Source of the DNA: Escherichia coli
GTDB taxonomy: Bacteria; Pseudomonadota; Gammaproteobacteria; Enterobacterales; Enterobacteriaceae
Assembly (NCBI RefSeq): GCF_965641715.1
Contig: NZ_OZ282453.1
Length of the DNA: 64,000 nt
Strand: one strand, 5' to 3'
The notes under the pieces are model-generated. The model saw only the letters and a program-made list of their open reading frames with translations. It ran no database searches and was not told the origin of the DNA. The stretch's first letter is position 1. Each line of letters starts with the position of its first letter. The translations under genes and the position numbers were made by a program. This document shows, piece by piece, positions 3,196 to 54,121 of the stretch.

Positions 3196-3714
3196 TCATT
3201 GGTTCCACGGCATCTTATCTAACAACCTTGCCATCCCACAAAAACCGCTAATTCCTGCAAACAGTAACCCGGCACCAACAAAGCCGCTTAATAAGAAGAA
3301 ACCGCTATTTACGGTATAACCCAGTATAACGCCGATTAATATTAAACCACCCGCAGCGATCTGCACCTGGCGCATTAACGGCAAGGGTTGAGATTTATTT
3401 ACCGCTACTGGCAATCCTGCTTTTTTCCAGCCATCAATCCCATCTTCGAGTAAAAAGATTTCTGCGGGGGCGGCAATCGCTGCTAATTTATCGGCGTTAT
3501 TACTGGTGCGTTTACCTGCCTGGCAGTGGAATATAATTTGCTCGTGACGTAATTTAGCCGGAAGACCTGACTGTTCCAGCACGGATAATGGAGCCAGATC
3601 TGCTTCAGGAATATGTTCACGAAGATATTCATCAGCATCACGAATATCGATTAACTTTGCGCCGCGTGCGATTAATTCTTGTGCATCATGCGGCGAAATG
3701 GTTGTCAAAGCCAT
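3196..3714 (-). CDS. ygaP: YgaP membrane-anchored rhodanese (thiosulfate sulfurtransferase)
   Basis: 172 aa ORF with rhodanese active-site region [12 protein letters not shown] and two C-terminal TM helices. Confidence 0.9.
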
Positions 3715-49945: not shown

Positions 49946-50905
49946 ATGAAAATTTGTATCGACGACGGCTCCACCAACATCAAGCTGGCATGGACTGAGA
50001 ACGGCGAACGCCGCAACGCCATCAGCCCGAACAGCTTCAAGTCGGAATGGTCTGCGCCGTTCGGTGGCTCGCAGCCCGCGAACTACATGCTTGATGGCGT
50101 GCGCTATGGTTTTGATCCGGTCAGCGATCGCTTTGTCCAGACGACCGACACGCAATACCAGTACAGCGATGTGAATGTCATTGCCATTCATCACGCGCTG
50201 GTCAAATCAGGCATCACGCCACAGGAGGTGGATGTGGTTGTCACCCTGCCATTGAGCGAGTATTTCGACACAAACGCACAGCCGGACATGGCCAACATCA
50301 GCCGCAAAAAAGCGAACGTTATGCGCCCGGTGGAGTACCAGAACGGCGAAACATTCACTATCCGTAACGTACGGGTTATGCCTGAATCCATTCCGGCTGG
50401 CTTTAAAGCACTGGCTGACATGAGTCCGCTTGAATCCCTGCTGATTGTGGATTTGGGCGGAACCACACTGGATGTGGCAAAGGTTCAGGGGCAACTGGCA
50501 GGTATCAGCCAGGTGTTTTGCGATCCACACGTAGGCGTTTCCCTGATGGCCGATGCCGTACTGTCGGTGATGGCCACTAACGGTATGCGTATCAGTCACC
50601 ACATCGCCAATACCATTATCGAACATCGCCATGATGAAGCCTGGTTGCGCCAGCACATCCACAATGACGCGCATTACGCCAGCCTGATGGCGGTTATTCG
50701 TGAAAAGGAAGAAACACTGAAACAACGCGTGATCCGCGCGCTGGCGGTTTTTTCGGGTTACGGGCGGGTGATGGTTGTCGGTGGCGGGGCGGAGATTGTG
50801 GCACCCGCTATCCGCGAAGCCTGCGGAGTTAATGCGACTTTCATCGCGGACGGGGTGCCACAGTTTGCTCTGGTTAATGGGCTGTACGCAATGGACAAGG
50901 AGTAA
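49946..50905 (+). CDS. ParM/StbA-like actin-fold ATPase (319 aa)
   Basis: N-terminus MKICIDDGSTNIKLAWTE...ISPNSFKSEW...YQYSDVNVIAIHHALVKSGI...LIVDLGGTTLDVA... matches the recalled plasmid R1 ParM phosphate-1/connect/phosphate-2 motifs; strong RBS. Confidence 0.8.
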   Translation: MKICIDDGSTNIKLAWTENGERRNAISPNSFKSEWSAPFGGSQPANYMLDGVRYGFDPVSDRFVQTTDTQYQYSDVNVIAIHHALVKSGITPQEVDVVVTLPLSEYFDTNAQPDMANISRKKANVMRPVEYQNGETFTIRNVRVMPESIPAGFKALADMSPLESLLIVDLGGTTLDVAKVQGQLAGISQVFCDPHVGVSLMADAVLSVMATNGMRISHHIANTIIEHRHDEAWLRQHIHNDAHYASLMAVIREKEETLKQRVIRALAVFSGYGRVMVVGGGAEIVAPAIREACGVNATFIADGVPQFALVNGLYAMDKE

Positions 50906-50909
50906 ACCA

Positions 50910-51221
50910 ATGACGACTCCAACCAGACGGATAAGTTTCTATCTGAAGCCCGCCGCCGTCAAGAACGAAGGTGAAGCATGCGCCTGGCTGGACAGCCTTA
51001 CACCAGAAGCGCGCAAAAGCGGCCAACGCGTGGCTTTTCTGGCCGGGCTGGCACTTCTGAAAATGAATCCGGCAGAGGCTTACCGACTGGCTGCATGGGC
51101 TGATGATGAAGCGTTATCAGTGACACAAACCAGGACAGAACGCCCCGCGTCACAGCCAGTATCAACCGCACAGATAACCAGTCAGATGGCCGGAAATATC
51201 CGGGCGTTATTTCCCGAATAA
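50910..51221 (+). CDS. ParR-like small DNA-binding protein (103 aa), partner of the ParM-like ATPase
   Basis: ORF 50775-51221 with probable start MTTPTRRISFYLKPAAV...; RRISFYLKP...RVAFLAGLALLKMNP...NIRALFPE parallels recalled R1 ParR (RRTIAFKLNP...RAALTAGLALYRQDP...ILRSLFPKE); 4-nt gap after parM-like gene. Confidence 0.7.
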   Translation: MTTPTRRISFYLKPAAVKNEGEACAWLDSLTPEARKSGQRVAFLAGLALLKMNPAEAYRLAAWADDEALSVTQTRTERPASQPVSTAQITSQMAGNIRALFPE

Positions 51222-51284
51222 CACAACATCAGGGCGCATCCGCCCTGATGACTTTAACCCGGGAACATAAACAAGGGGGACACA

Positions 51285-51620
51285 ATGCAACGCATTGACA
51301 GAGAAAAAGCGCAGCGACTGATTGAGCGGATGGAAGCGCTGGCGAAAGAAGAAAATGTCAACATCCAAAAAATAGCTGAATGTGGCCAGATAGTTCTTCG
51401 TCGTGAAAAAGACCTCAAACAACTGATGTCTGGCGAAACCAGCAAAACATGGACTTCAGGTGAGGAGACGATTTATTGCAGCTTCTGCAATAAATCCCAG
51501 TACGAAGTCACAAAGGTGATTGCCGGACCGTCTGTTTACATCTGCAATGAGTGCGTTGATTTGTGCAATGAAGTTATCAGGAGAGAAGTGACAGACCATG
51601 AAGAAAAAACGCATGAATGA
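51285..51620 (+). CDS. Small protein with C-terminal ClpX-type C4 zinc-binding domain (111 aa)
   Basis: [40 protein letters not shown] is near-identical in pattern to the ClpX N-terminal ZBD ([39 protein letters not shown] as recalled); N-terminal 60 aa predicted helical; own AAGGGGGA RBS. Confidence 0.8.
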
Positions 51621-51786
51621 CGAATTTGACGGCTTTTAATTTTATCGGGGCGCACTGTCGCCCTGCATGGAGAAAAACAATAAAAAAGATGAATAACTGC
51701 TCATGTCAGACGCGCTGCGGGCAAGTCTGGCACCCTGCCCTGTCTCCGCAAAGGCTGTTGTCTTAACACGACAGAGTATGCCAGCA

Positions 51787-52194
51787 TTAAATATAATCTT
51801 CTTCGTAGTCGCTGATTAATTCATTGCCATAATCAGACAGCAATTTCAAAGCAAAGGTAACTTCCTCAAGGGTAGCTATCCCCATTGCTGAAAACACCGT
51901 TAATTTAACCAGCAGCAGGGAGTTTGAAAGTTCGGAAGAGTTCATCATTAAAAATATTGATGCAGCCTGAAAAGCTGTGCGTTTATTCCCATCATGAAAG
52001 GCATGAGCCTTGGCTATACCAATCAAATACATAGCAGCCAGAGCATGAATATCATCAACCCCTTCATAGTAGTGTAGTGTCCTGACGCGATTTAAAGCAC
52101 CTTCAAGTAGCCCGTCATTGGCATTTCCGCTCTGGGGTAAAGTTTCAGCATGGATACGTTCTACTTGTTCTTTTGACAAAAACACTATGTCCAT
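51787..52194 (-). CDS. Doc-like (Fic/Doc family) toxin
   Basis: 135 aa ORF with Doc-type Fic motif HAFHDGNKRTA (HxFx[D/N]GNKR); start overlaps stop of upstream antitoxin-like gene. Confidence 0.8.
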   Translation of the reverse strand: MDIVFLSKEQVERIHAETLPQSGNANDGLLEGALNRVRTLHYYEGVDDIHALAAMYLIGIAKAHAFHDGNKRTAFQAASIFLMMNSSELSNSLLLVKLTVFSAMGIATLEEVTFALKLLSDYGNELISDYEEDYI

Positions 52195-52550
52195 CAGTTA
52201 TCCTCAAGCTTTTTAATGATATCCGCATGTTTTTCTCTTGTACGCTTCATTGCATCTTCAAAAGACAATCCTTTTTTTCTCTGTGCGACAAGAGCTGGAT
52301 GACGTTTTTCCAGATCTCTCACTGCATTTATTAAGAGTGGTTGCTTCATTTTGTTTATTTGATCCCGCAGTTTTTTGGTTTTGCCAAGGACAGCCCGTAT
52401 TTCAGGACTAAGATCAGAACCAGCAAGAACAACATCCTTCCCTCCCTGCGCCGTGATAACGACACTGCCACCGGAAGAAAGGTAATCCAGAATTTCACTC
52501 AGGTTCTCACGAAATTCATCATCAGTTACAGTTTTCATATTCATTTCCAT
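52194..52550 (-). CDS. Phd/YefM-like antitoxin with extended C-terminal region (118 aa; start ambiguous among three ATGs)
   Basis: N-terminal MKTVTDDEFRENLSEILDYLSSGGSVVITAQGGKDVVLAGSDL resembles the Phd/YefM fold; basic C-terminal 60 aa; overlaps doc-like gene (ATGA arrangement). Confidence 0.7.
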   Translation of the reverse strand: MEMNMKTVTDDEFRENLSEILDYLSSGGSVVITAQGGKDVVLAGSDLSPEIRAVLGKTKKLRDQINKMKQPLLINAVRDLEKRHPALVAQRKKGLSFEDAMKRTREKHADIIKKLEDN

Positions 52551-52617
52551 TATGCACGCCCATAACGTAAGTATAACGGCTTGTTGGGCAGTAATAACAC
52601 CGCCATATTTTCATTTT

Positions 52618-52652
52618 ATACACCGCACAATAGTGCACAAATTTGCACAATT
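52618..52652 (-). promoter_or_regulatory. Candidate promoter/operator of the phd/doc-like operon with three iterated GCACAA sites at 10-bp spacing
   Basis: Plus strand CGCACAATAGTGCACAAATTTGCACAAT; minus strand reads TTGTGCAAATTTGTGCACTATTGTGCG followed by TATAAAAT -10-like element, then the antitoxin start. Confidence 0.5.
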
Positions 52653-53074
52653 TTTTTGAACAACTTTTTACCCTTCCGGCCCGCGTGGCGACTGGATCCG
52701 TCAAGGATCCGTGCGTGCACAAAAAAACGCGTTTTTTCTGCGCGCAGGTGACGGGGGAACAGCCCGCGTTTCAGGGGGTAAATAGCATTCCCTGAACGAT
52801 GTCGCAGCGACACAACAGAATGGCTGTATTTCTCACACTGAGCGTGAAAAAGGCGTGAGGGCTTTTGATTTGATGGGGTGACAGATAAGGCCGTCAAAAT
52901 CGCACTGAGGCGGCAAGAACATGCAGTCAACGCGGTGGGATTGCGTAAGAGCCTGACCGTCGATGATGGCGATAAGCTGGAAGACGTCGTGAAATTATCT
53001 GATTGATACAGGAGCTGGAGAGTCGGGGCATAAATTTTTTATGCCCCGGCGAAGCAGCAGACAAGCGAAGCGCG

Positions 53075-54121
53075 TCAGGATGTGGGCTGGGTGTCCAGCA
53101 GTGCGTAAGGGTTAAAGCGGATCACCTCTTCGCCAAGCCAGTCATTGATATGCTTCATGGCCTCCATGACGGGCATCAGCTCGTTAATTGCGTAAACCCG
53201 CGCTGCCTTCTCCACATCACCAAACGCACTTTTTTCGCCCGGCATCGCCCCCATCAGTTGCGGCGGAACGCGGTGCGCAGCCAGCACATCATCACGGGAT
53301 GCCGCCTTAACATTCATGAACTCATCCTTTGCGGTGATCTGCTGGAACGGCAAAATTTGCACACCTTCTTTGCCCCCGTTGGGCGCGTGAATGAGCACGT
53401 TTTTAAATGCACCACCACCACGCGCACCCTGTAGCGTTTCCTTCAGGGAGTCCATGCTTTCGCGGTTTACCTGCGCTGCACCGATGTAGATGATGCACCC
53501 GGCGTGGGATCCATTGTCGTAGTACAGTTTTCTGAACATGTCCGCCGAATGAGACAGGCTGGCCGAGAGTAATGCGCCAAGATATTCCGGCATGCCGTAA
53601 ATTTCCTGGTTAATGTCCGGATTCATCAGGTGGCACACTTTGCCAGGGCGAAACTGAAACGCGTCCTTGCCATCCTGCACATACCACCATGATTCAAGAT
53701 CGCTTCCGCGTCGCATGTATTTCGCCAGTGCGTGCCGTAATTTAAGTGGTTCGCCGAGCATATTGCTCCGAAGCTCAAGGAATGCGTTACCGAACACAAA
53801 CCAGTCCAGCGCCAGCGCCGAGAAATCCTGCCGGGAAAGCAGCGGGTGCGGGATGTAGCAACCGAGCAATACATTGCGCTTAAAGTAAAGCGCAGACTGA
53901 TGCCAGGACGTTTGCCGGGCGGCTCTTGCCAGACCGTACCAGTCCACCGGGGTTTCATACCACCGCCCGTTATCAGCACAGTACATATTGTCCAGCAGGT
54001 CATGCCCGGTCAGGCGGTAAGGACCATCAAATGTGAATGCACTGAGCGACGATTCTTTCCTGAGCGCATCAGCGAGATCAATGCGTGAACTCATGCGCAC
54101 TTTTTTATTTTTTCTGCTCAT
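53075..54121 (-). CDS. Portal protein (P2 gpQ-like)
   Basis: 348 aa ORF in the conserved position and orientation of P2 Q; start overlaps the stop of the terminase gene. Confidence 0.9.
   Translation of the reverse strand: MSRKNKKVRMSSRIDLADALRKESSLSAFTFDGPYRLTGHDLLDNMYCADNGRWYETPVDWYGLARAARQTSWHQSALYFKRNVLLGCYIPHPLLSRQDFSALALDWFVFGNAFLELRSNMLGEPLKLRHALAKYMRRGSDLESWWYVQDGKDAFQFRPGKVCHLMNPDINQEIYGMPEYLGALLSASLSHSADMFRKLYYDNGSHAGCIIYIGAAQVNRESMDSLKETLQGARGGGAFKNVLIHAPNGGKEGVQILPFQQITAKDEFMNVKAASRDDVLAAHRVPPQLMGAMPGEKSAFGDVEKAARVYAINELMPVMEAMKHINDWLGEEVIRFNPYALLDTQPTS

Follow-up and report, generated by a model that had tools for sequence, protein, structure and literature searches.

A Phd/Doc toxin-antitoxin operon carried as cargo in a P2-like Escherichia coli prophage, next to a phased GCACAA array that probably belongs to the phage cos site

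Two overlapping genes on the minus strand of the 64 kb Escherichia coli window, which is the whole stretch of DNA analyzed here, resemble a Phd/Doc toxin-antitoxin pair and are preceded by three GCACAA sites spaced one helical turn apart. The arrangement raises two questions: whether these sites are the operator through which a seemingly unusually long antitoxin represses its own synthesis, and whether the module serves its prophage as an abortive-infection switch. We conclude, with a probability of roughly 85%, that the pair is a type II Phd/Doc operon that occupies, as accessory cargo, the cos-proximal hotspot of an E. coli prophage of the P88-like type (Xuanwuvirus, P2-family), and that the GCACAA array belongs to cos and is not an operator. 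The pair itself is an ordinary, already catalogued Phd/Doc toxin-antitoxin system: the NCBI/PGAP annotation already names its members Phd/YefM and Doc, and exactly this protein pair is P2-hotspot system #52, 'PhdYeFM_antitox | Fic', recorded with 77 occurrences as a 'Toxin-antitoxin system' (Rousset et al. 2022; PMC9122126 Table S5B).

The toxin gene (51787–52194, minus strand; WP_001561009.1) is an open reading frame of 135 aa whose product, by HMM, PDB and fold matches, combines a Doc fold with the complete Doc catalytic motif. The protein scores above the curated threshold of the NCBIfam model TIGR01550 DOC_P1 (53.6 bits, cutoff 38.65), matches Pfam Fic PF02661 (5.6e-11) and PHROG 577 'Doc-like toxin' (2.9e-26), and has P1 Doc (3k33_A, 6e-13) as its top PDB sequence match. 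Read directly from the sequence at 51979–52005 (minus strand), the catalytic motif H64-A-F-H-D-G-N-K-R72, with TA next, is intact, as the sequence-only reading had it; it lies in register with H66-I-F-N-D-A-N-K-R74 of P1 Doc, conforms to the Doc pattern HxFx(D/N)(A/G)NKR and is identical in 10 of 10 subfamily toxins. Structurally, the toxin part of an AF2 model of the fused antitoxin and toxin superposes on 3dd7_A with a TM-score of 0.86 (target-normalised) and an rmsd of 2.3 Å over 122 residues, as expected of a Doc fold, in a model whose mean pLDDT is only 67.5 and whose toxin part scores mostly 70–87.

The antitoxin gene is directly upstream of the toxin gene and coupled to it, the organization expected of Phd/YefM systems: its stop codon and the toxin start codon overlap by 1 nt (TGATG), in keeping with the overlap described earlier, and a GAGG sequence is found about 10 nt 5′ of the toxin ATG. 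The longest open reading frame at this position (52194–52550, minus strand) encodes 118 aa, the length given in the sequence-only reading, but its first ATG is not conserved and is replaced by CTG in locus L013. Among relatives that are 53–64% identical, the ATG at 52538 with its context ATGAAAACTG is the sole invariant start; because only this ATG is conserved, the antitoxin is 114 aa rather than 118 aa long (52194–52538, minus strand; WP_001561011.1), with the PGAP start at the fifth codon of the longest frame. The figure of 118 aa thus holds for the open reading frame and not for the gene, and the protein still exceeds the 73 aa of P1 Phd (PDB 3hry_A). Its length is no peculiarity of the locus, contrary to what had been proposed: 19 close and 35 representative relatives match it over their full length at 105–135 aa, and the additional residues are a trait of the whole small subfamily.

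Three segments can be distinguished in the antitoxin. Residues 1–42 (52413–52538, minus strand) form the predicted Phd/YefM DNA-binding and dimerisation domain, recognized through Pfam, PDB and AF2 comparisons. Pfam PF02604 matches at 5.5e-6, covering model positions 1–39 of 74 only, and is matched by 24 of the 27 family members; the top PDB match of the family profile is P1 Phd residues 1–50 (4.5e-6), and the modelled β-α-α-β-β domain (pLDDT about 83) superposes on 4zlx_A with a TM-score of 0.78 and an rmsd of 0.8 Å over 39 residues. With NCBIfam TIGR01552 the antitoxin scores 16.6, under the cutoff of 20.8. Sequence, curated HMM and fold agree on a Phd/Doc-type pair, and the Phd/YefM-like N-terminus reported earlier is borne out. 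The basic C-terminal extension is likewise real, residues 43–114 having a pI of 10.3 and 19 K+R against 10 D+E, and its basic part is a variable linker of residues 43–88 (52275–52412, minus strand; pI 11.1), which varies in length, shows no column conservation across the family and is predicted to be helical at a pLDDT of only 49–70. Residues 89–114 (52197–52274, minus strand) carry a motif defined by the family alignment, LSFxEAxKRTxxKHAxIIKxLEDK, in which F93, A96, H104, A105, I108, K109 and L111 are invariant across 27 antitoxin sequences; within the P2 clade this motif is 88–92% identical, against 53–64% for the whole antitoxin.

We infer that residues 89–114 are the Doc-neutralising segment. 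The confidence profile of the fused model is suggestive of their docking on Doc: residues 91–100 reach a pLDDT of 85 in this model against 74 for the antitoxin alone, and the two blocks preceding them score 49 in the fused model. Sequence comparison of the motif with the Doc-binding helix of P1 Phd (residues 54–73) detected no similarity. Compared with P1 Phd/Doc as a whole (3K33, 3DD7, 3HRY, 4ZM0), the window pair has a toxin about 30% identical with the same fold (TM-score 0.86) and an identical HxFxD(A/G)NKR pattern, the same antitoxin N-terminal domain, the antitoxin gene in first position and a phage-borne location. It differs in the 46-residue basic linker and the C-terminal motif of its antitoxin, in the absence of upstream GTAC-core palindromes from its clade, and in residing in an integrated P2-like prophage, whereas P1 is a plasmid prophage.

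The same gene arrangement recurs across the subfamily. The downstream gene has a Pfam Fic match in 12 of the 13 distinct loci inspected, usually with a 1-nt overlap, while in the thirteenth, L025, the contig ends within this gene, for which there is no Pfam record. Where coordinates of relatives were extracted, the overlap is 1 nt in eight of nine and 4 nt in L024, and the toxin is 86–87% identical across genera. Loci L017–L026, from other prophages and chromosomes, likewise encode a Phd domain, a variable linker and a ...KHAxIIKxLEDK terminus, followed by a Doc protein of 135–136 aa, with gene overlaps of 1–4 nt as in the window pair. Their antitoxins, however, are only about 30–37% identical to that of the window, their linkers are rich in S/T/P/N where the window linker is basic, and their ribosome-binding site is adjoined by a canonical CTGTACATGTACAG palindrome that is absent from the window clade. 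Relatives sit in prophage accessory slots, namely antiterminator-to-lysis regions, a tail-gene region and the P2 hotspot, and a tblastn search with the antitoxin against phage isolates and plasmids returned next to nothing, the two matches being a mislabelled Salmonella contig and a distant plasmid.

The prophage cargo slot recognized in the sequence-only reading is the cos-proximal hotspot of P2-like phages and corresponds to the old/tin slot of P2, between replication gene A (followed here by ParM/ParR) and cos with the portal gene. Like P2 old, the pair is oriented away from cos; exclusion phenotypes have been demonstrated for old and tin, whereas none is reported for the window pair. The prophage is integrated, with an integrase gene adjoining, and its lineage also carries a ParM/StbA partition system. 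A free ClpX zinc-finger protein is encoded beside the pair; it was considered as an obligatory partner and rejected, as P88 has the gene without the pair and loci L012 and L013 have the pair without the gene.

The GCACAA sites themselves are as described: they begin at 52625, 52635 and 52645 on the plus strand, in steps of exactly 10 bp, with a fourth at 52717. The hexamer occurs 30 times on both strands of the 64 kb window, against about 54 copies expected from shuffles, and because it is rarer than expected the triple cannot be attributed to chance. Cross-phage conservation identifies the three (C/T)GCACAA sites (52624–52650) as the distal part of a cos-flank array, to which a further TGCAC(AA) copy (52716–52722) belongs by its fixed spacing of 72 bp from the third. 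The three sites lie 87–112 bp 5′ of the real antitoxin start, in DNA that is shared with prophages devoid of the pair, so that 'promoter region' was an interpretation of these sites and not an observation. Homology with 1086 pair-less genomes begins at 52622–52625, and of 5426 E. coli genomes about 1137 contain the shared block, while the toxin-antitoxin pair occurs in 19. It is kept beside unrelated cargo in P88, an O157 prophage, an O111 prophage, Citrobacter Shae_phiSM and Enterobacter phiT5282H.

An array of three plus one TGCA(C/T) copies is found in P2, P4, 186 and P88-like phages. The third and fourth copies lie exactly 72 bp apart in the window, P2, P4, 186, seven P88-like/Novemvirus loci, L012 and L013, and a shuffle test of the 72-bp array gave no match in 200 trials. 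P4 carries the TGCAT version, with distances as in P2. A satellite of strain JML285 carries the TGCAC version and encodes a toprim primase, an integrase, a Delta-like protein and a capsid gene, with no portal or terminase gene; its homology is confined to about 165 bp that begin with the first TGCAC copy and end shortly after cosN. The array therefore has the distribution expected of a P2-family cos in two respects: it is flanked by the accessory hotspot on one side and the portal gene on the other whatever the cargo, and it is common to satellites otherwise without helper homology. Since it is kept by all P2-family phages examined and by satellites sharing nothing else with their helpers, the array is most likely a recognition element of the packaging signal, and it marks the fixed edge of the cargo hotspot. 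Judged from sequence, the three GCACAA sites belong to the phage cos site and are not the operator of the pair.

The cohesive-end site itself can be placed by the register with P2. The annotated 19-nt cos of P2 begins 24 nt past its fourth TGCAT copy, and the corresponding stretch of the window, CAGGTGACGGGGGAACAGC at 52745–52763, is the predicted cosN; both contain the core GnCGGGGnAA, and the predicted stretch does not vary among the aligned loci, the satellite included. The window thus resembles the cos of P2, 186 and P4 (NC_001895 cosL/cosR) in having three TGCA(C/T) copies with a fourth exactly 72 bp past the third, a G-rich cohesive end with GnCGGGGnAA about 24 nt past the fourth copy, and an adjoining portal gene. 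It differs in that its TGCAC(AA) copies are spaced 10/10, where the TGCAT copies of P2, 186 and P4 are spaced 12–13/10, in that the sequence between the copies is unrelated, and in that the cosN of P88-like phages is predicted from sequence, whereas the cos of P2 is annotated. The linear record LR595891 ends between the third and fourth copies and not at the predicted cosN; the possibility that its ends are cos ends, which would place the triple some 20 bp from the end of the genome, was rejected on the P2 register and the invariant GGTGACGGGGGAACAG block. The cos sites of P2, 186 and the satellite P4 are reportedly the subject of a 1990 study by Ziermann and Calendar, and our literature search for TGCAT repeats near cos found only 'a 55-bp conserved cos'.

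A mainly transcriptional array, serving as the site of a host or phage regulator or as an outward promoter that drives the hotspot cargo instead of packaging, is improbable. It would account for the annotated old-tin transcript of P2, which starts 26–28 bp inside the array, for the TTGAAT -35 of P2 that overlaps the first copy, for the weak promoter-like arrangement in the window, where TTGTGC in the second copy is followed after 16 bp by TAAAAT, and for the A-tract immediately 5′ of the array on the minus strand. In P4 and 186, however, the neighbouring genes (psu in P4; orf97, with terminator t95b, in 186) read towards the array and nothing is transcribed away from it, so in these two it is no promoter element for cargo. 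Moreover, the array is retained in satellites sharing only cos, the putative -10 is not conserved in L012, certain cargo genes at the same position lie on the other strand, and the exact 72 bp together with the fixed distance to cosN is hard to square with promoter function. Beside the packaging function that we prefer, the array may play a secondary part in cargo transcription. Self-repression of the long antitoxin through the triple is very improbable, for although the sites exist, recur once per helical turn upstream of the operon, include a GTGCAC palindrome in the middle copy and keep the same distance from the genes in pair-carrying loci of other genera, they belong to a block that begins at the homology edge with some 1100 prophages of other cargo, extends to another phage genus and has equivalents in P2, 186 and P4, which have no Phd, and in a satellite, while family members outside P2-like phages lack the sites and have a TGTACA-type palindrome at the start codon instead, and known Phd/YefM operators are palindromes rather than direct repeats (PMC1802561).

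With the array assigned to cos, the pair is most likely controlled from the 83 bp that separate the array from the start codon (52539–52621, minus strand). This stretch is conserved only among loci carrying the pair, and other P88-like prophages have unrelated sequence in its place. Within this region, the conserved non-palindromic block CCGTTATACTTACGTTATGG at 52560–52579 is the best candidate operator. Two possible promoters were considered and set aside as weak: TTGTGC-N16-TAAAAT, which involves the second repeat and has the -10 that is not conserved in L012, and the -10-like TATACT at 52570–52575, which reads TATAAT in L013 and is accompanied by a poor -35. A sigma-70 consensus scan called no promoter on the minus strand, and an Rfam scan of 51200–53200 returned nothing over threshold. 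The GTAC-core palindrome associated with Phd/YefM antitoxins is missing here, as no GTAC occurs in 52539–52660. Six distant family members from independent contexts, meanwhile, all have GCTAAnCTGTACATGTACA 10–25 bp 5′ of the ATG, a palindrome with a GTAC core like those known from Phd and YefM (PMC1802561). In the case of YefM/YoeB and Axe/Txe, which share the antitoxin fold family of the window pair and have unrelated toxins, the operators are paired TGTACA palindromes 12 bp apart (PMC1802561), in contrast to the 10-bp-phased direct repeats of the window; autoregulation through the N-terminal domain would be expected of the window antitoxin as well.

By analogy with P1, the toxin would arrest translation by phosphorylating EF-Tu. 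The Phd-type N-terminal domain of the antitoxin would form a dimeric autorepressor, and the variable basic linker would connect it to the 26-residue C-terminal motif, which may neutralise Doc in the manner of the P1 Phd C-terminal helix. The two genes, joined at TGATG, are translationally coupled, and free Doc would build up once antitoxin synthesis ends.

As to what this activity does for the prophage, we lean towards phage exclusion over prophage stabilisation, with less than even confidence. An abortive-infection role is possible, as had been proposed: a phage that stops host expression or inactivates the antitoxin would free Doc, and translation would halt before progeny are formed. This tentative reading is encouraged by the slot, which is the P2 hotspot with old, tin and many validated defence systems (PMC9519451), by the occupation of other prophage accessory slots by relatives, and by the near absence of the module from plasmids. 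On the other hand, the pair is outside the set of systems assayed in the hotspot survey, many hotspot genes are non-defence genes, and our literature search found no defence phenotype for the Doc family. No PADLOC system model matches the pair; in PADLOC-DB 2.0 the toxin has only weak partial Fic-domain similarity (PDC-S23, 7e-6) and the antitoxin no match.

Selfish addiction, in which cells that lose or replace the prophage, or its plasmid form, are penalised by the module and no anti-phage role exists, is likewise a reading to be held tentatively. P1 Phd/Doc is the classical addiction module (PMC1802561), the ParM/StbA partition system of the prophage lineage suggests a plasmid-like state, and the toxin is conserved more than the antitoxin, as is usual for addiction modules. 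Set against this, post-segregational killing gains little for a prophage integrated beside an integrase gene, and the slot is swapped freely among related prophages, which shows that the module fails to guard itself against replacement. A more specific proposal, that the long-Phd/Doc module is an abortive-infection defence of P2-like prophages in which the 46-residue basic helical linker, instead of plain lability of the antitoxin, senses an invading phage, for instance because a phage protein targets it or because it works as a conditional degron, and maybe with the ClpX zinc-finger protein, appears unlikely; it draws on the linker being absent from P1 Phd and hypervariable across the long-antitoxin family.

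Taken by itself, the module is of little import: it is annotated and catalogued, its toxin-antitoxin family is a textbook one, and its sequence gives no hint of a new activity. If the pair were shown to exclude phages, this would be, to our knowledge, the first defence phenotype for a Doc-type kinase toxin. The repeats, meanwhile, serve as a warning that phased repeats beside a prophage cargo gene can be phage backbone: in this prophage the first repeat of the cos-flank array is exactly where the hotspot stops. With its fixed 72 bp and its fixed distance to cosN in P2, 186, P88-like phages and satellites, the 3+1 TGCA(C/T) array offers itself as a concrete candidate for the part of the P2-family packaging signal that terminase recognizes, and such a role would explain where cargo swaps stop.

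The Phd/Doc-like pair noticed in the sequence-only reading is real, but the interesting parts of that interpretation fail. The toxin combines the Doc fold with a complete catalytic motif and is coupled to a Phd-type partner. Its ORF (51787-52194, minus strand) encodes 135 aa and contains the Doc-type Fic motif HAFHDGNKRTA reported earlier, which aligns with that of P1 Doc: H64, F66, D68, N70, K71 and R72 are in register with P1 H66 to R74. The protein passes TIGR01550, the curated NCBIfam Doc model (53.6 bits against a cutoff of 38.65), and is matched by both Pfam Fic and PHROG 577 'Doc-like toxin'. The nearest solved structure is P1 Doc (3k33_A, E 6e-13), and the AlphaFold model superposes on DocH66Y (3dd7_A) with a TM of 0.86 and an rmsd of 2.3 Å. 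Among relatives from the P2 hotspot, toxin identity is 86-87%.

The antitoxin stop codon and the toxin start share one base (TGATG), with GAGG about 10 nt ahead of the toxin ATG. This overlap, a Pfam PhdYeFM match (5.5e-6, covering only the first ~40 residues) and the superposition of the modelled N-domain on the Phd DNA-binding domain 4zlx_A (rmsd 0.8 Å over 39 residues) bear out the description of an overlapping upstream partner with a Phd/YefM-like N-terminus. The score against the NCBIfam phd model is 16.6, below the cutoff of 20.8, and the best PDB match of the family profile is P1 Phd, only over residues 1-50. The longest ORF (52194-52550, minus strand) does encode the 118 aa initially given, but PGAP begins at the fifth codon, yielding 114 aa (WP_001561011.1). 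Because the context of that codon, ATGAAAACTG, is invariant in relatives from other genera (53-64% identity) and the upstream ATG is unconserved (CTG in L013, a pair-bearing relative), the antitoxin is taken as 114 aa, at 52194-52538.

With the antitoxin as query, a word-indexed search returned 19 clusters with identities of 53-98%, each spanning the whole query and no shorter than 111 aa. When 1.8 billion representatives were searched exhaustively with HMMER, only 35 proteins reached E<1e-3, and many of these align end to end, with lengths of 105-135 aa. The length, singled out as unusual, is therefore not a peculiarity of the locus and is typical of a small subfamily. In the family alignment, residues 1-42 form a conserved Phd domain and residues 43-88 a linker variable in length and sequence, followed by a strongly conserved terminal motif, LSFxEAxKRTxxKHAxIIKxLEDK, in which F93, A96, H104, A105, I108, K109 and L111 are invariant. 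Among P2-hotspot relatives this motif is 88-92% identical, against 53-64% for the whole antitoxin. The basic character ascribed to the C-terminal extension belongs to the linker (pI 11.1 in the clade of the window pair), the terminal motif being near neutral; distant members have an S/T/P/N-rich linker. The C-terminal helix of P1 Phd plugs Doc, and by analogy we infer that the terminal motif may be the Doc-neutralising segment. This is supported by the pLDDT of residues 91-100, which rises from 74 in the antitoxin-alone model to 85 in a fused antitoxin-linker-toxin model, where the two preceding blocks score 49.

The gene directly downstream of the antitoxin has a Pfam Fic match in 12 of 13 distinct loci, with a product of 135-151 aa; in the thirteenth (L025) it is truncated by the end of the contig and lacks a Pfam record. 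Wherever coordinates were extracted, the two genes overlap by 1 nt, except in L024 (4 nt). Subfamily members are found in the same cos-proximal slot in P2-like prophages from hosts that include Edwardsiella, in lambdoid prophages downstream of an antiterminator or RusA gene, in one tail-gene region and at one chromosomal site; sequenced phage isolates and plasmids essentially lack them.

The pair is carried by a P88/Xuanwuvirus-type prophage of the P2 family, with the order integrase, replication endonuclease, ParM, ParR-like, ClpX zinc-finger, Doc, Phd, portal, terminase and capsid. As a Phd/Doc module the pair has been annotated and catalogued before: it occurs whole at ≥99% identity in 19 of 5426 complete E. 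coli genomes, annotated as 'Phd/YefM family antitoxin' and 'death-on-curing family toxin', and its slot, from gene A to cos/portal, corresponds to the hotspot of Rousset et al. 2022 (PMC9122126), whose Table S5B lists the pair as system 52 (77 occurrences, 'Toxin-antitoxin system'), outside the systems assayed there. Within the integrated prophage, ParM/StbA (49946-50905, plus strand) is followed by a ParR-like 'plasmid partitioning/stability' gene (50910-51221, plus strand); about a quarter of P2-like phages carry such partition genes and may persist as plasmids (Rousset et al., PMC9122126). Adjoining the pair is a 111-aa protein (51285-51620, plus strand; PHROG 6797, PGAP 'ClpX C4-type zinc finger protein') consisting of a ClpX-type C4 zinc finger and little else. 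P1 Phd is a ClpXP substrate, and a free ClpX N-domain could in principle alter antitoxin turnover; against such a link, the gene is present in P88, which lacks the pair, and missing from L012 and L013, relatives from other genera that have the pair. The position of the annotated tQ terminator of P2, just downstream of the portal gene, is occupied by a perfect 11-bp inverted repeat (CGGGGCATAAA/TTTATGCCCCG, 53024-53048); a sub-threshold Rfam 'gyrA RNA' match there is almost certainly spurious.

If the pair acts as P1 Phd/Doc does, the toxin would phosphorylate EF-Tu and arrest translation, the C-terminal motif of the antitoxin would neutralise it, the N-domain would autorepress, and antitoxin depletion would activate the toxin. 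A role in phage exclusion is favoured by the richness of the hotspot in defence systems and by the prophage accessory slots that subfamily relatives occupy, although defence-system models do not match the pair and a literature search found no published defence phenotype for Phd/Doc. The partition system of this prophage lineage fits a role in stabilisation.

Three plus-strand GCACAA copies lie exactly 10 bp apart at 52625, 52635 and 52645, confirming the spacing of one helical turn, and a fourth lies at 52717. Counting both strands, the 64 kb window contains just 30 copies of the hexamer, below the shuffle expectation, so the cluster is not a chance one. Its proposed role as the operator of the pair does not hold, because the sites are kept beside unrelated cargo and the homology of pair-less genomes starts there; on comparative evidence, they are a conserved cos-flank element belonging to the phage. 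A megablast of 51640-52900 matched 1105 genomes, and, apart from the 19 that bear the module, their alignments start at query 983-986 (window 52622-52625), the first GCACAA; 1137 genomes hold a 169-bp query from that point at ≥80% coverage. The block TGCACAATAGTGCACAAATTTGCACAATTTTTTTGAAC is kept in P88, an O157:H7 prophage, JJ2434, an O111 prophage and Citrobacter phage Shae_phiSM, and also in Enterobacter phage phiT5282H, from a different genus, with unrelated cargo to its left in each. P2, 186 and the satellite P4 each have three phased TGCAT copies plus a fourth closer to cos. The pattern (C/T)GCA(C/T)-N5-8-TGCA(C/T)-N5-TGCA(C/T)-N67-TGCA(C/T) matches once each in the window, in the same region of strain 96_1414B (L001) and in 11 further loci (P2, P4, 186, L012, L013 and seven P88-like/Novemvirus loci, one of them the right end of P88_4B11), and in none of 200 shuffled versions of the window. 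All matching loci have a spacing of exactly 72 bp from the third copy to the fourth, with unrelated intervening sequence.

The annotated 19-nt cohesive end of P2 starts 24 nt past the fourth copy, and in the same register the predicted cosN of the window is CAGGTGACGGGGGAACAGC (52745-52763), invariant in every aligned locus and sharing the core GnCGGGGnAA with P2 GGCGAGGCGGGGAAAGCAC. The array thus delimited spans 52624-52763 in the window, 1953-2094 in P2 (L010), 302-425 in P4 (L015), 602-725 in 186 (L016) and 3501-3665 in a satellite-like element of E. coli JML285 (L027); its distance from cosN is fixed, and the cargo hotspot stops exactly at its first copy. On the simplest reading of this conservation, the array would belong to the packaging signal and set the cos-side edge of the cargo hotspot. 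The linear P88_4B11 Xuanwuvirus record LR595891 (L003, L005) ends between the third and fourth copies, near window 52670 and ~75 bp from the predicted cosN; its termini are probably not true cohesive ends.

That the array is instead a cargo promoter element is argued against by its retention in P4, although only cos is common to P2 and P4, by the adjoining genes of P4 (psu) and 186 (orf97 and its terminator), which read towards it and so exclude that function there, and by the JML285 element, whose ~165 bp of homology to the window run from the first TGCAC copy to just past the predicted cosN. In P2 itself (L010, 1925-1979) the annotated starts of old-tin transcription fall 26-28 bp inside the first TGCAT repeat, which a TTGAAT -35 overlaps, so that array and cargo promoter abut or overlap. 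The JML285 element (NZ_AP024114.1, 3986578-3993742) keeps all four copies, with divergent sequence between the third and fourth, and its cos region is P88-type at ~80% identity. It encodes a toprim primase, an integrase, an Ogr/Delta-like zinc finger, a MazEF pair and its own 'P2 family major capsid protein', has neither portal nor terminase, and is a candidate satellite of P88-like helper phages.

The DNA specific to the module is an 83-bp stretch (52539-52621), conserved across genera, in which G(T/C)TAT occurs three times as a direct repeat, at spacings of 21 and 11 bp. Two of these copies lie within CCGTTATACTTACGTTATGG (52560-52579), a block overlapping a -10-like TATACT (TATAAT in L013); we propose this block as the putative operator of the module, for which no consensus promoter was detected. 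The upstream region of the module contains no GTAC in the clade of the window pair, and the N-terminal residues of the antitoxin differ by clade in the alignment (TDxEFRxNL versus SYTxMRxEL), which fits a changed DNA specificity. Six distant loci (L017, L019, L021, L023, L024 and L026) carry a near-identical GCTAAnCTGTACATGTACA(G) in otherwise unrelated DNA, 10-25 bp ahead of the antitoxin ATG, and have no GCACAA repeats. This sequence is of the GTAC-core palindrome type bound by YefM and P1 Phd (PMC1802561), and it provides a ready-made operator prediction for the distant branch of the family.
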